Below are positions 19,649 through 24,917 of a DNA stretch of 64,000 bases, piece after piece (position 1 is the first letter of the stretch; each line of letters begins with the position of its first letter). The DNA comes from Parcubacteria group bacterium. Its GTDB lineage: Bacteria > Patescibacteriota > Minisyncoccia > UBA6257 > UBA11618. The position numbers and the translations under genes are program-made. Below the pieces are notes generated by a model. It was given only the letters and a program-made list of their open reading frames with translations. It searched no databases and had not been told where the DNA came from. The DNA lies in assembly GCA_943357895.1 (NCBI GenBank), contig CALRGO010000001.1, forward strand, positions 140,042-204,041. The letters run 5' to 3'.

Positions 19649-21190
19649 ATGTCACGCCGCTTGGACGTTTTGTTCGTGATTCCTGCTGGTTTGAAGCAGA
19701 TATATCAATCGTTAGCCGGGGACCATGCTATCGAGCCGCCCGCAAAGGCGCGTTTTATGGCAAGTTATCTCATTCGTCGCGGATACGGCGTCGATTTGAT
19801 TGATGCCGCGATTACGGGCGATACGCCGAAGACTATGGCTCGCGAGGTGCGCTGGCGCAAGCCGAAGCTCGTCGTGATTCCCGTGTACGGATTTAATCCG
19901 TCGAGCTCTACGCATACGATGCCTGCTGCGCGGGCGTTTACCCAAGCGATTAAGGACTTGTGTCCGGAAATTATTGTCATGATGACGGGTACGCACCCTT
20001 CGGCGTTGCCGGAGCGGACGTTACGTGAAGAGCCGGTGGACTTCGTCTGTGGCGGCGAAGGGCCGATTACGGCTTATGAGCTTCTGCAGGCGATTGATGC
20101 CGGTGGCTCTGAAAGGGATCTGGATAACGTCCGTAGCCTGTGGCGCTTAAAACGGGATGGGTCCGTAGCGTGCGGGTTTGCTGCACCGCTTATTGACCTC
20201 AACGAAGAGCCGGTTTCTAAAGAAGCATGGCGCTTAATGGATCCGCGTCTCTATCGCGCACACGACTGGCATACGTTTTACCGACCCTATGCGGAACGCG
20301 GGCCGTATGCCAACCCGTATTCGCGGGAGGGTTGTCCGTTTTCGTGTGACTTCTGTAATATCCAAGCACCCTTCCGCGAAGGGGAATCACTCGAGGATGC
20401 GAAAGAGAATAGTTTTCGGAATTTTCGTCCGGAACTGTTCGTACAAGAGCTCGAATTTCTCGTTGAAGAGTTCGGCGTGAAGTACGTCAAAATTCCCGAC
20501 GAGATGTTCGGTTTCGGCAAGCATCCGCTCCAAATTGCCGACCTTGTCGCTGAGCGGTTTGGCGATTCTTTGGATATCTGGTGCTATTATCGCGTGGATA
20601 CATGCAAGGAAAGCCATATAGACCGTTTGCGCCGAGCGGGCTTCCTTTGGCTCGGTTTAGGTATTGAGGCCGCAAACAGCGTGGTCCGGTCGCAGCAAGA
20701 CAAGGGTTTTAAGGATGAGAGCATTCATAGTATTGTCCATCGGCTTCACGCCGCGGGCATCGAGGTGGGTGCTAATTACATCTTCGGTCTTCCGGGGGAA
20801 ACCGAGCGTTCAATGGAGGAGACGCGGGCGCTCGCTTTCGATCTGAATACCGCTTTCGGTAATTTTTACTGCGACCAAGCGCTGCCTGGTTCACCGCAGT
20901 ACGTGCGTGCGGAGAAGGCGGGATATCCTCTCCCAGCACGCGATGGCGGGCCGGGGTGGATAGGTCACTCGCAGTATTCAAAGCAGAGTGAGCCGTACTA
21001 TGCGGGTAATGATCTTACCCCTGCTCGCATACTACAGTTTCGTGACGAAACGCATCTCGCGTATTATGGGCGGCCGGAATATGTTAAGCGTTTAGAGAAT
21101 GACCCGAAGTTCGGCGCAGTTGCCCTTTCGACTATTTCCAAATGGTTGGAAGACGTCGGTTCTCTGGAGCGCGACTTGCTGAAGGCATAG
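19649..21190 (+). CDS. Cobalamin-binding (class B) radical SAM enzyme.
   Basis: N-terminal B12-binding-like domain. Radical SAM motif CPFSCDFCN. 513 aa. Confidence 0.8.
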   Translation: MSRRLDVLFVIPAGLKQIYQSLAGDHAIEPPAKARFMASYLIRRGYGVDLIDAAITGDTPKTMAREVRWRKPKLVVIPVYGFNPSSSTHTMPAARAFTQAIKDLCPEIIVMMTGTHPSALPERTLREEPVDFVCGGEGPITAYELLQAIDAGGSERDLDNVRSLWRLKRDGSVACGFAAPLIDLNEEPVSKEAWRLMDPRLYRAHDWHTFYRPYAERGPYANPYSREGCPFSCDFCNIQAPFREGESLEDAKENSFRNFRPELFVQELEFLVEEFGVKYVKIPDEMFGFGKHPLQIADLVAERFGDSLDIWCYYRVDTCKESHIDRLRRAGFLWLGLGIEAANSVVRSQQDKGFKDESIHSIVHRLHAAGIEVGANYIFGLPGETERSMEETRALAFDLNTAFGNFYCDQALPGSPQYVRAEKAGYPLPARDGGPGWIGHSQYSKQSEPYYAGNDLTPARILQFRDETHLAYYGRPEYVKRLENDPKFGAVALSTISKWLEDVGSLERDLLKA

Positions 21191-21212
21191 CAAACTAAAT
21201 CGCACTGTGCGT

Positions 21213-21243
21213 ACGGGGTCTGTTAAAAGGCCCCGTTTTTTTA
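21213..21243 (+). terminator. Intrinsic terminator after the radical SAM gene.
   Basis: acgggg (21213-21218) pairs with ccccgt (21231-21236), followed by T8. Confidence 0.6.
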
Positions 21244-23047: not shown

Positions 23048-23072
23048 TCTTTTTTTATGTTAGGTTAATCAT

Positions 23073-24917
23073 ATGAAAGTTGCTGATTTTATCATTAATC
23101 ATCTTGCGGAGCGGGGAATTGATAAAATGTTCGTAGTGTATGGCGCTGCTAACAGCGATTTAATAGACGCCTTCACCCGAACTAAAAAAACCGAGTATGT
23201 GGCCGTAATTCATGAGCAAGCGGGAGGGTTTGCTGCCGAAGGATACGCTAAAATAAGCGGCAAGGTAGGGGTTGCAATAGCAACGAGCGGTCCAGGTGGA
23301 ATGAATTTCGTTACCCCTATCGGTAATTGTTATTATGATTCGATTCCCTGTTTGTTCATAACGGGACAGATTAATTCGCAATTCATGCGTCCTGATCCGG
23401 CTATTCGGCAGGTCGGTTTTCAGGAGACTGATATTGTGGGAATCGTTAAGCCGATAACGAAATACGCGAAAATGGTTACTAATCCGCAAGATATAAAATA
23501 TGAGCTTGAGAAAGCCCTGTTCCTTGCATGCGATAAGCGTCCCGGTCCCGTTCTTCTTGATATTCCGCTTGACGTTCAGAAAAAAGAAATAGACCCAGAG
23601 ACCCTTATTGGTTTCGATTCTCAGGTCGCCCTTTCATGTTACGGCGGCGACTCGATTGACCGCCAGATAGACGGATTTATAGACGACCTTTTGAAGTCGA
23701 AACGTCCGGTTATGGTGGTGGGTGGCGGCGTTCGTCTTGCCGGCGCCGTTGACGAGCTCCTCATCTTGGGAAAAAAGCTTAAGATACCGATGTTTCCGAC
23801 ATGGAATGCACTTGATACGGTAGCTTCGGATTATGAATATTACGGGGGTAGGATCGGCACATATGGCGGCCCCGGACGTAACTTCGGCGTTCAAAACAGT
23901 GATTTACTGTTAGCTCTCGGAAGTCGTCTTTCGGGTCGCATTACTGGCGGTAACGTGTCTTCTTTTGCGCGCGGAGCAAAGCGGTACGTTGTGGATGTCG
24001 ACGAATCTCTTTTACAGAAAAAGCTTCAGCAGCTTCCTTTTCACGAAAATATTTATTGCGACGCCAAAGAGTTTATCAGCCGTCTTTCCAAGCGCCTTGC
24101 AAATATAACTCTGCCTGATTTTTTAAAATGGAATGAGCAAGTAATAGATTGGCGTGAAAAATATGATCCGGTGCGGCCCGAGCATTTTACTCAGGAATCT
24201 TTAGTGCATCCGTATGCGTTCGTCCGTATTCTTTCCGAGGAGATGGGTAAAGATGATATTTATACCGCTGATTGTGGTGGAAACATAGTCGTTTCCAACC
24301 ATGCGTTTAAAACAAAAACCGGCCAGAGATATTTTACGAATAACGGCAACTCGCCCATGGGATTTTCTTTTGCGGGGGCTATGGGCGCATGGTTTGCGGC
24401 ACCCGAAAAGCAAGTGGTATGCCTTATTGGAGATGGGGGATTCCAGATGAATTTGCAGGAGCTTCAGACTTTCAAACACTATGGTGTGAAAGTTAAGACA
24501 TTTATTTTGAATAACCATATATATGGAATAACAAAGGCATTTCAGGAGACTAATTTTGAAGGGCGTTGCGAGGCGTGTGGCCCAAAGGGTTATAGCGTTC
24601 CTGATTTCGTGAAAATAGCCCAAGCATATGGCATACGAACGGAGACGATAGTGGCAAATGAGGAGATTAGAGCAAAAGTCCGTGCCGTACTTGAGAGTCC
24701 TGAGGCAGTGGTATGCGATGTTAATTGCCACGAATATCATACGTACGAGCCTCGTATTTTTGGCTGGTCAACCCCAATCGAAGATATGTACCCCTATCTC
24801 CCTCGTGAGGAATTCAAGAAAAATATGTTTATAGATCCGCTTCCAGGTTGGGAAAATCCGGCGATGCCGGGTAAGCAGGTTAGTCAGAATGTTCCTCCGA
24901 TAAAAACAATGGAATAA
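23073..24917 (+). CDS. Thiamine-diphosphate-dependent enzyme, acetolactate-synthase-like, three-domain.
   Basis: N-terminal Pyr domain (..HEQAGGFAAEGYAK..GPGGMN..). C-terminal TPP motif GDGGFQMNLQELQT..N. 614 aa. Confidence 0.85.
   Translation: MKVADFIINHLAERGIDKMFVVYGAANSDLIDAFTRTKKTEYVAVIHEQAGGFAAEGYAKISGKVGVAIATSGPGGMNFVTPIGNCYYDSIPCLFITGQINSQFMRPDPAIRQVGFQETDIVGIVKPITKYAKMVTNPQDIKYELEKALFLACDKRPGPVLLDIPLDVQKKEIDPETLIGFDSQVALSCYGGDSIDRQIDGFIDDLLKSKRPVMVVGGGVRLAGAVDELLILGKKLKIPMFPTWNALDTVASDYEYYGGRIGTYGGPGRNFGVQNSDLLLALGSRLSGRITGGNVSSFARGAKRYVVDVDESLLQKKLQQLPFHENIYCDAKEFISRLSKRLANITLPDFLKWNEQVIDWREKYDPVRPEHFTQESLVHPYAFVRILSEEMGKDDIYTADCGGNIVVSNHAFKTKTGQRYFTNNGNSPMGFSFAGAMGAWFAAPEKQVVCLIGDGGFQMNLQELQTFKHYGVKVKTFILNNHIYGITKAFQETNFEGRCEACGPKGYSVPDFVKIAQAYGIRTETIVANEEIRAKVRAVLESPEAVVCDVNCHEYHTYEPRIFGWSTPIEDMYPYLPREEFKKNMFIDPLPGWENPAMPGKQVSQNVPPIKTME

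Follow-up and report, generated by a model that had tools for sequence, protein, structure and literature searches.

A YerE-like carboligase and an aminotransferase in a glycan cluster of a Parcubacteria group bacterium: candidate genes for a C-branched deoxysugar

Which sugar, if any, is tailored by the enzymes encoded at positions 19649 to 24917 of a 64-kb stretch of contig CALRGO010000001.1 from a Parcubacteria group bacterium (64,000 nucleotides, referred to here as the window), where genes for a B12-binding radical S-adenosylmethionine (SAM) enzyme, a class-I aminotransferase, and a thiamine diphosphate (ThDP)-dependent enzyme resembling acetolactate synthase lie within a glycan biosynthesis cluster? 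An earlier note on this DNA had recognized these three enzymes and their sugar-cluster setting, all of which domain matches now confirm, while leaving the role of the aminotransferase and the likely heptose acceptor unremarked. It is proposed here that the genes represent the tailoring portion of a pathway toward a C-4 acyl-branched 3-deoxy nucleoside diphosphate (NDP)-sugar, most likely derived from a heptose, which the surrounding Wzy/flippase/glycosyltransferase cluster would then incorporate into a surface glycan; we regard this reading as probable rather than secure.

The limits of the segment from 19649 to 24917 coincide exactly with open reading frame (ORF) boundaries, and it harbors the following features, among them a Nudix gene, situated between the radical SAM and aminotransferase genes, which the earlier note did not mention:

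19649 to 21190, + strand: B12-binding (class B) radical SAM enzyme, 513 aa (PF02310, 4e-12; PF04055, 1e-12)
21213 to 21236, + strand: terminator-like hairpin with a tail of seven T residues, between the radical SAM and Nudix genes
21245 to 21820, + strand: Nudix hydrolase, likely an NDP-sugar pyrophosphatase (PF00293, 3e-11)
21851 to 23047, + strand: class-I aminotransferase resembling aspartate and aromatic aminotransferases (AspAT/ArAT), 398 aa (PF00155, Aminotran_1_2, 2e-62)
23073 to 24917, + strand: YerE-like ThDP-dependent carboligase, the proposed branching enzyme, 614 aa (TPP_enzyme_N, M, and C domains)

A public gene call on the identical sequence places the aminotransferase start at the ATG at position 21932, which may be the true start.

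The ThDP-dependent enzyme and its aminotransferase partner

As judged by sequence comparison, the ThDP-dependent enzyme is YerE-like and not an acetohydroxyacid synthase (AHAS). By name, the NCBIfam model that it matches best is that of the acetolactate synthase large subunit (TIGR00118), yet the score of 394.9 bits lies below the cut-off of 538.35, and all other AHAS models remain far under theirs. Against solved structures, it scores 335 bits with JanthE (PDB 8rph) and 290 bits with PDB 5ahk, at 32 to 36% identity to these two proteins, compared with at most 244 bits for the plant, yeast, and Escherichia coli AHAS enzymes. JanthE is a characterized YerE-like carboligase which accepts ketones (PMC12188165). 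The enzyme retains the catalytic Glu of the HEQ motif and the GDGG...NN ThDP motif, in alignment with JanthE, 5ahk, and AHAS, while, like 5ahk, it has Phe at the position of the Trp in the AHAS QWQ motif.

Phylogenetic placement was assessed with a neighbor-joining tree of 47 sequences, comprising the window enzyme, relatives found on scanning 185,579 species genomes, JanthE, 5ahk, and E. coli IlvB, IlvI, Gcl, and PoxB, but without the Yersinia pseudotuberculosis YerE itself. In each of 100 bootstrap replicates, IlvB, IlvI, and Gcl fell outside a clade consisting of the window subfamily, JanthE, 5ahk, and all homologs from sugar clusters. The same support was obtained for a tight subfamily, at 59 to 70% identity, which unites the window enzyme with members from Nitrospira, the candidate phyla radiation (CPR), DPANN archaea, and Pelagibacter; across Nitrospira, CPR, DPANN, Pelagibacter, and Bacteroidales, identity within the subfamily is 59 to 80%. 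The kinship with YerE suggested in the earlier note is borne out by the JanthE and 5ahk scores and by this grouping, and architecture, phylogeny, and genomic association each point to membership in the YerE family.

The aminotransferase is probably the supplier of the 2-oxo-acid donor. Its best PDB match is the aromatic/aspartate aminotransferase of Pyrococcus horikoshii (245 bits), no NCBIfam equivalog cut-off being reached, and it possesses the catalytic Schiff-base Lys, the Asn, Asp, and Tyr residues that contact pyridoxal phosphate, and the Arg that binds the alpha-carboxylate. The motifs GFSKpfaMTGWR, NSPqNPTG, SDEiY, and yvRicya align with the P. horikoshii and Thermus thermophilus enzymes, and an Asn occupies the site of the Thermus AspAT Lys that reads acidic side chains. 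A threonine-phosphate logic of the CobD/PduX type, considered for the aminotransferase together with the neighboring GHMP kinase, was dropped in view of the canonical AspAT/ArAT features and of best matches to true aminotransferases.

The co-occurrence of the aminotransferase and ThDP genes is far beyond chance. Of the 38 tight-subfamily loci with sufficient flanking sequence, 35 have an aminotransferase gene no more than 4.5 kb upstream of their ThDP gene, as opposed to 1 of 24 loci of more distant YerE-like relatives. In the YerE-like systems ErwE, MMAR_2332, and MyGE, functionalized 2-oxo acids are made by a neighboring aldolase (PMC9306805). When another donor-supplying gene was sought at two loci which lack the aminotransferase (L043 and L040), only TAL/FSA aldolase, HAD, SIS, and short-chain dehydrogenase/reductase (SDR) genes were seen, which point to no particular supplier.

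In our view, the strongest indirect evidence that the slot occupied by the ThDP gene may specify a sugar C-branching step is its non-orthologous replacement among relatives. Beside homologs of the radical SAM gene are found the YerE-like and aminotransferase pair (the window, Nitrospira, L088, and L090), a two-subunit E1 alpha/beta enzyme (L091, 11771 to 13584; L093, 11009 to 13052; L094, 10624 to 11799; and the P0264 locus), or a split transketolase (L092, 10679 to 12561). Gene content and order in loci L090, L091, and L092 otherwise follow those of the window: the RmlC-like cupin, the SDR termed Epim2, the nucleotidyltransferase, the radical SAM enzyme, and the GHMP kinase are encoded in all three, the dehydratase DegT2 in L090 and L092, and the Nudix and family 2 glycosyltransferase (GT2) genes in L090 and L091, with shared-gene identities of 43 to 82%, the L092 Nudix protein being only 33% identical to that of the window. 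The aminotransferase accompanies the YerE-like type in 4/4 sampled contexts and the E1 or transketolase types in 0/5. According to a 2025 review, the decarboxylase (YerE-like), alphaKADH2, and transketolase superfamilies are the only ThDP superfamilies known or proposed to take ketones as acceptors and to branch sugars (PMC12247030).

Acceptor synthesis and the proposed pathway

The genes from which an acceptor could be made lie on either side of the core stretch and, in two cases, closer to the start of the window:

14550 to 15056, + strand: RmlC-like cupin, likely a C3/C5 or C5 epimerase acting on a 4-keto NDP-sugar (PF00908, 3e-43; TIGR01221, 119 bits, below cut-off)
15056 to 16225, + strand: DegT2, predicted ColD/E1-type 3-dehydratase dependent on pyridoxamine phosphate (PMP), with ColD and E1 closest in the PDB and a His motif
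18102 to 19046, + strand: Epim2, SDR resembling Cj1427-type NDP-heptose C4-dehydrogenases (55% identity to PDB 6vo6)
19043 to 19627, - strand: HldE-domain-II-like nucleotidyltransferase, divergent from the radical SAM gene (PF01467; TIGR02199 rfaE_dom_II, 91 bits, below cut-off); 19043 to 19543 in the public call
24925 to 25923, + strand: GHMP1, HddA-like anomeric sugar kinase (GHMP_kinases_N and C; HddA model, 139 bits, below cut-off)
25931 to 26896, + strand: GT2 glycosyltransferase (PF00535), following the kinase gene in relatives also
26893 to 27591, + strand: NTPt, HddC/ManC-like sugar-1-phosphate nucleotidyltransferase (PF00483)
27588 to 28313, + strand: class-I SAM methyltransferase, final gene of the co-directional run (Methyltransf_11, 23, and 31)
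29914 to 31933, + strand: GHMP2 (HddA-like, 160 bits), GmhB-like phosphatase (127 to 151 bits), and second HldE-domain-II-like nucleotidyltransferase (rfaE_dom_II, 82 bits)
7294 to 8307: Gmd, true equivalog (511 bits, cut-off 415)
8304 to 9467: DegT1, predicted His-type 3-dehydratase, with ColD and E1 closest in the PDB

Downstream of the ThDP gene, the GHMP kinase, GT2, nucleotidyltransferase, and methyltransferase genes are spaced by 7-nt gaps or 4-nt overlaps (the NTPt start overlaps the GT2 stop by 4 nt), and the cupin gene overlaps the DegT2 start.

These neighbors are predicted to be capable of producing a 3-deoxy-4-keto NDP-sugar, which is the type of acceptor used by YerE, and His-type DegT genes together with a gene for a 4,6-dehydratase or C4-dehydrogenase occur at related loci as they do in the window. 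The closest PDB matches of DegT2 are ColD (168 bits) and E1 (139 bits), and the first His of its motif SMYFGHQISTIEGG aligns with ColD His188 in the HMMER alignment, that of DegT1 being assigned from the matching motif position. Where DegT aminotransferases have the Schiff-base Lys, a His is present in DegT1 and DegT2 and likewise in their DegT counterparts at related loci, a signature which marks all of them as putative PMP-dependent 3-dehydratases; the earlier note's mention of 3-dehydratases is confirmed. Epim2 matches PDB 6vo6 over its full length (309 residues, 370 bits, E = 7e-110), and GHMP1 has heptose phosphate kinases as its top PDB matches. GDP-3-deoxy-4-keto-heptose has been produced in vitro with enzymes of Campylobacter jejuni (PMC10680097).

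The same genes recur in relatives. Epim2 lies beside ThDP or radical SAM genes in Nitrospira, in L087 (78% identity), and in L090 to L092 (66 to 68%); copies of DegT2 in L090 and L092 are 74 to 82% identical, and those of GHMP1 in L090 to L092 are 59 to 69% identical. The cupin is retained in L090 (65%) and L091 (53%), as is the Nudix gene after the radical SAM gene (64% and 52%, respectively), while the GT2 gene follows the GHMP gene in L090 (57%), L091 (43%), and the P0264 locus. The nucleotidyltransferase of 19043 to 19627 is kept beside the radical SAM gene in L087, L090, L091, L092, and L094, and the methyltransferase is 63% identical in L087.

In approximately 33 Nitrospira loci, including the complete genome of N. 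defluvii (L025), the genes form a single contiguous, co-directional operon in the order DegT2, Epim2, GHMP1, NTPt, aminotransferase, B12-binding radical SAM, ThDP enzyme, and second B12-binding radical SAM. Identities to the window proteins are 66% for DegT2, 58% for Epim2, 57% for GHMP1, 32% for NTPt, 29% for the aminotransferase, 40% for the radical SAM enzyme, and 68% for the ThDP enzyme; the second radical SAM protein is not orthologous to that of the window (24%). The aminotransferase gene also adjoins the ThDP gene in CPR bacteria, a DPANN archaeon, a Bacteroidales metagenome-assembled genome, and the closest relative, L087 (80% identity). The accompanying acceptor genes are of the heptose type in Nitrospira and the window, of a Gmd and ColD-like type in Liptonbacteria and Pelagibacter, and of a CDP-hexose/E1-like type in the Bacteroidales locus. 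Because the acceptor-making genes vary between loci, the aminotransferase/ThDP unit behaves as a portable side-chain module.

The remaining enzyme of the core stretch is less readily assigned. The CxxxCxxC motif of the radical SAM protein (CPFSCDFC) spans residues 229 to 236, with the B12-binding domain N-terminal to the core, and C229, C233, and C236 are invariant in 37 homologs; homologs of the protein range from 92% to 40% identity. A ThDP enzyme is encoded within a few genes of this family in 9/9 sampled contexts, usually together with a Cj1427-like SDR and a GHMP kinase. No NCBIfam model reached its cut-off for this protein, and weak matches were obtained to the P-methyltransferase models Sden_1168 (64 bits) and PhpK (55 bits). 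An AlphaFold2 (AF2) model (pLDDT 93) gave TsrM, AprD4, MgmA, OxsB, TokK, and CysS as best Foldseek matches, at 14 to 19% identity, thereby mixing methylases (TsrM, MgmA, TokK, and CysS) with AprD4 and OxsB. AprD4 is a sugar 1,2-diol dehydratase which itself yields a 3-deoxy-4-keto sugar. In view of this mixture, C-methylation, which the earlier note had put forward, is only one option: the class B assignment stands on the PF02310 and PF04055 domains, the motif, and the fold, but methylation was not confirmed, as fold and sequence do not separate a methylase from an AprD4-type dehydratase. Assignment of a single reaction was abandoned, as NCBIfam, the PDB sequence search, and the AF2 and Foldseek comparison returned remote and mixed matches only.

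Directly after the radical SAM stop codon, the strong hairpin at 21213 to 21236 has a stem of nine pairs, six of them G-C, and ends in the run TTTTTTT. A hairpin and T-run of different sequence occupies the same position in L090 (10596 to 10625), whose radical SAM protein is 68% identical. In view of these hairpins, the radical SAM gene may form a transcription unit that is separate or attenuated, apart from the run of Nudix, aminotransferase, ThDP, and kinase genes. A scan of 19000 to 29000 revealed no inverted repeats of 16 nt or longer.

In the proposed order of steps, C4 of an NDP-heptose would be oxidized by Epim2, followed by removal of the 3-hydroxyl by DegT2 to give a 3-deoxy-4-keto sugar, which the RmlC-like cupin may then epimerize. 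The aminotransferase would convert an amino acid to a 2-oxo acid, which the YerE-like enzyme is presumed to decarboxylate, adding the resulting acyl carbanion to the C4 ketone and so forming a tertiary alcohol bearing an acyl branch. A further radical step on the sugar or its branch, either C-methylation or an AprD4-like dehydration, would be a function of the B12-binding radical SAM enzyme. Control of the nucleotide handle, or its exchange, is probably the task of the Nudix hydrolase and the second nucleotidyltransferase, and the methyltransferase and GT2 enzymes are predicted to finish and transfer the sugar.

Points against the pathway and rival explanations

A number of observations weigh against this proposal. 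Its support consists throughout of sequence similarity and synteny, and a literature check gave no confirmation for the identities of two of the structures relied upon, namely, 5ahk, which we take to be PpYerE, and 6vo6, presumably the GDP-heptose C4-dehydrogenase Cj1427 of Huddleston et al. (2020). The HddA-, HddC-, and GmhB-like genes all fall below curated cut-offs, with both kinases far from the 600 bits required for HddA, NTPt at 89 bits for HddC (cut-off 300) and 121 bits for a mannose-1-phosphate guanylyltransferase model (also below cut-off), and the phosphatase facing cut-offs of 150 to 178 bits. No SIS/GmhA isomerase gene was found within the window, such genes being present inside the syntenic clusters L090, L091, and L092. 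A YerF-like reductase gene adjoins the ThDP gene in L087, L089, and L043 but not in the window; an SDR gene directly follows the ThDP gene in L087, L089, L003, and L043, whereas the window and Nitrospira have none at that place, other SDR genes of the window being located at 10762 to 11709 and 33209 to 34093. The terminator-like hairpin divides the radical SAM gene from the rest. The partner aminotransferases belong to at least three non-orthologous class-I types with 28 to 45% mutual identity, which would also fit a generic recycling of glutamate and 2-oxoglutarate. Finally, Gmd and DegT1 are a possible source of a hexose acceptor within the window, and a hexose route of this Gmd type accompanies the ThDP gene in Liptonbacteria and Pelagibacter.

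The last of these points underlies the rival that fares best, which keeps the chemistry but assumes a hexose acceptor: Gmd and DegT1 would produce GDP-4-keto-3,6-dideoxy-D-mannose (the colitose intermediate) for branching by the YerE-like enzyme, and the heptose genes would serve another residue of the glycan. That Gmd is a true equivalog, that DegT1 carries the His signature, and that Liptonbacteria (L042/L089), L087, and Pelagibacter (L043) pair the ThDP gene with Gmd, Fcl-like, and DegT1-like genes all make this a genuine, if lesser, possibility. In the window, however, Gmd and DegT1 directly precede genes for a TylC3-like NDP-sugar C-methyltransferase (Methyltransf_13/14) and an Fcl-like reductase, with which they form an already complete route; this set at 7294 to 11709 (Gmd, DegT1, the C-methyltransferase, and the Fcl-like reductase on the - strand) looks like a second, separate pathway to a methyl-branched 3,6-dideoxyhexose. 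The ThDP gene is instead physically joined to GHMP1 and NTPt, and the Nitrospira loci combine it with Epim2, DegT2, and GHMP1 in the absence of Gmd.

Rather unlikely, to our mind, is the explanation that the ThDP enzyme uses pyruvate while the aminotransferase merely recycles cosubstrates, i.e., glutamate for the ColD-type dehydratase and 2-oxoglutarate for the Cj1427-type dehydrogenase. ColD-type C3-dehydratases do require L-glutamate, and Cj1427 requires 2-oxoglutarate (PMC10680097). The lack of orthology among the partner aminotransferases is what a generic role predicts, and many of the hosts are CPR bacteria or DPANN archaea, whose metabolism is presumably minimal. Yet none of the five syntenic clusters which keep Epim2 and a DegT gene but employ E1 alpha/beta or transketolase contains an aminotransferase gene, whose position follows the YerE-like gene and not the DegT gene.

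It appears improbable that the aminotransferase and ThDP enzyme together form a free aldehyde or acyloin, in the manner of an Ehrlich pathway, which would be joined to the glycan afterwards as a substituent, without a C-C branch on the ring. Such pairs, with an amino acid as starting material, have precedents, one being anisomycin biosynthesis (PMC11387542), and the ThDP enzyme is conserved at 60 to 80% while acceptor-making genes vary among loci. Against this stand the position of the enzyme within the YerE-like clade, the presence of a His-type 3-dehydratase gene alongside the ThDP gene in nearly all loci, and the lack of any conserved ligase or acyltransferase gene for the attachment of such a product.

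A true AHAS and a housekeeping aminotransferase, both simply embedded in a glycan cluster, would explain the name of the best NCBIfam match but are very improbable: AHAS identity was ruled out by the score, by the separation from IlvB and IlvI in the tree, and by the lack of a small subunit in the window, where tblastn with E. coli IlvH and IlvN gave nothing better than E = 3; domain scans of the window revealed neither ilvC nor ilvD near the ThDP gene, and the synteny of that gene with sugar genes is kept across phyla. A phosphonate or sulfonate decoration, built by a phosphonopyruvate or sulfopyruvate decarboxylase, a transaminase, and a Fom3/PhpK-like radical SAM enzyme, can scarcely be credited and was rejected, for although the radical SAM protein weakly matches Sden_1168 and PhpK, and flanking nucleotidyltransferase and Nudix genes recall the Fom1/FomD logic, no phosphoenolpyruvate (PEP) mutase domain was found in the scanned ORFs of the window, the three-domain, 614-aa ALS/YerE architecture is not that of the shorter phosphonopyruvate decarboxylase (Ppd), and Xsc models score the ThDP enzyme at only 206 to 225 bits. 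The earlier note had set two outcomes against its own proposal, clustering with genuine acetolactate synthases beside an ilv small subunit or the presence of a PEP mutase, and neither was observed. The highly modified, possibly branched deoxysugar that it envisaged is supported by the YerE-like clade, the acceptor-type neighbors, and the lack of AHAS or PEP mutase signs in the 64-kb window.

Relation to known systems and surrounding genes

The branched-heptose pathway proposed above shares with the YerE/YerF system of yersiniose A, and with ErwE (erwiniose), MMAR_2332 (caryophyllose), MyGE, JanthE, and PpYerE, a three-domain ThDP enzyme of the decarboxylase superfamily from the same clade, as well as a predicted PMP-dependent 3-dehydratase partner leading to a 3-deoxy-4-keto NDP-sugar. 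As in the ErwE-type systems, a neighboring gene plausibly furnishes a 2-oxo-acid donor other than pyruvate (PMC9306805), although the putative supplier here is a class-I aminotransferase and not an aldolase. Unlike those systems, the window enzyme belongs to a separate, tightly conserved subfamily, its probable acceptor is a GDP-heptose derivative formed via a Cj1427-type dehydrogenase and not the CDP-3,6-dideoxy-4-ketoglucose of YerE, and a B12-binding radical SAM enzyme is co-conserved while no YerF-like gene is adjacent.

The capsular heptose pathway of C. jejuni provides the closest parallel for acceptor synthesis, with which the window shares the SDR, a ColD-type dehydratase, an RmlC-like epimerase, and HddA-, HddC-, and GmhB-like genes. 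That pathway comprises HddA, GmhB, HddC, the C4-dehydrogenase Cj1427, the C3-dehydratase of HS:5, and C3/C5 epimerases, and the predicted intermediate is the GDP-3-deoxy-4-keto-heptose made in vitro (PMC10680097). It ends with a C4 reductase, whereas the additional enzymes of the window are a ThDP carboligase, an aminotransferase, and a radical SAM enzyme, and the window kinase and nucleotidyltransferase fall short of the curated HddA and HddC models.

The radical SAM protein resembles the class B enzymes GenK and Fom3 (methylases) and AprD4 (a 1,2-diol dehydratase) in its N-terminal domain of the B12-binding type, its CxxxCxxC core, its fold, and its sugar-tailoring context. It differs from them in sharing at most 19% identity with any solved member, in reaching no curated model cut-off, and in being linked to a ThDP enzyme in all sampled contexts, a linkage which, to our knowledge, does not occur for GenK, Fom3, or AprD4. 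The two-subunit E1-type (alphaKADH2) and transketolase-type sugar-branching enzymes of antibiotic pathways have their counterparts in the slot of the YerE-like gene in syntenic relatives. They do not occupy that slot in the window, whose split transketolase (45163 to 47221) lies with pentose-phosphate genes.

Relative to the YerE family as described, the elements that appear new are the distinct conserved subfamily, the aminotransferase partner, the probable heptose acceptor, the co-conserved radical SAM enzyme, and the occurrence in Nitrospira, CPR, and DPANN. An in-silico survey by Krug et al. in 2024 reportedly covered more than 200 YerE-like clusters, and part of the present subfamily may already be catalogued there. 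C-branched sugars are rare and form immunodominant parts of bacterial surfaces, and YerE-like enzymes are sought as biocatalysts for chiral tertiary alcohols; we know of no branched-sugar structure from Nitrospira, CPR, or DPANN lineages. Tentatively, and with considerable doubt, the data may be extended to an undescribed class of surface sugars in Nitrospira, CPR, DPANN, and some Bacteroidales, namely, 3-deoxy-heptoses with an amino-acid-derived C4 acyl branch and B12 radical SAM tailoring, in which the branching module would be interchangeable among the YerE-like enzyme with its aminotransferase, E1 alpha/beta, and transketolase. If correct, the proposal would widen YerE-type chemistry to heptose acceptors, donors from the amino acid pool, and a coupled radical SAM step, and would indicate an unrecognized conserved glycan feature in nitrite-oxidizing Nitrospira and in uncultivated CPR and DPANN organisms, whose cell surfaces are almost unknown. 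The swapping of three ThDP classes in one conserved slot represents a natural experiment on what each class contributes.

In N. defluvii (L025, 11910 to 18967), the operon runs on with the second, unrelated B12-binding radical SAM gene and a gene for an 1800-aa protein with GT1/CgeB-like, three GT2, methyltransferase, and TPR domains. Upstream, at 2292 to 3005, lies a gene for a flagellar brake of the PilZ/YcgR kind, and the target of the Nitrospira operon could be flagellin or another surface protein.

The glycan cluster as defined by domain scans spans approximately 5 to 37 kb of the window and encodes a Wzy_C/TPR protein, Gmd, two DegT proteins, the TylC3-like C-methyltransferase, the Fcl-like reductase, CgeB-like glycosyltransferases, the RmlC-like cupin, several SDRs, the second GHMP kinase with the GmhB-like phosphatase and a nucleotidyltransferase, two flippases, and a priming sugar transferase. 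A second HddA-like kinase, a GmhB-like phosphatase, two HldE-domain-II-like nucleotidyltransferases, and two Nudix genes are distributed over 29914 to 31933, 19043 to 19627, and 17399 to 17983, a set of genes which suggests either a step of nucleotide exchange or two pools of heptose activated with different nucleotides. Between the methyltransferase-like and RmlC-like genes lies an ORF of 319 aa (13607 to 14566) with no Pfam or NCBIfam match, and seven consecutive + strand ORFs of 288 to 492 aa at 47244 to 55248 have zero Pfam matches. Flanking the cluster (1776 to 7266 and 39399 to 42215) are genes for a 1068-aa protein with a peptidoglycan-binding domain, a 733-aa Wzy_C and TPR protein of the O-antigen ligase or oligosaccharyltransferase type, and a 938-aa protein with a lamin-tail domain. 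Farther downstream, at 43080 to 47221, GAPDH, RpiB, a ribulose-phosphate-epimerase-like gene, and a transketolase split into separate N- and C-half genes probably constitute a housekeeping pentose-phosphate set, which could also serve as a source of sedoheptulose-7-phosphate for the heptose route.

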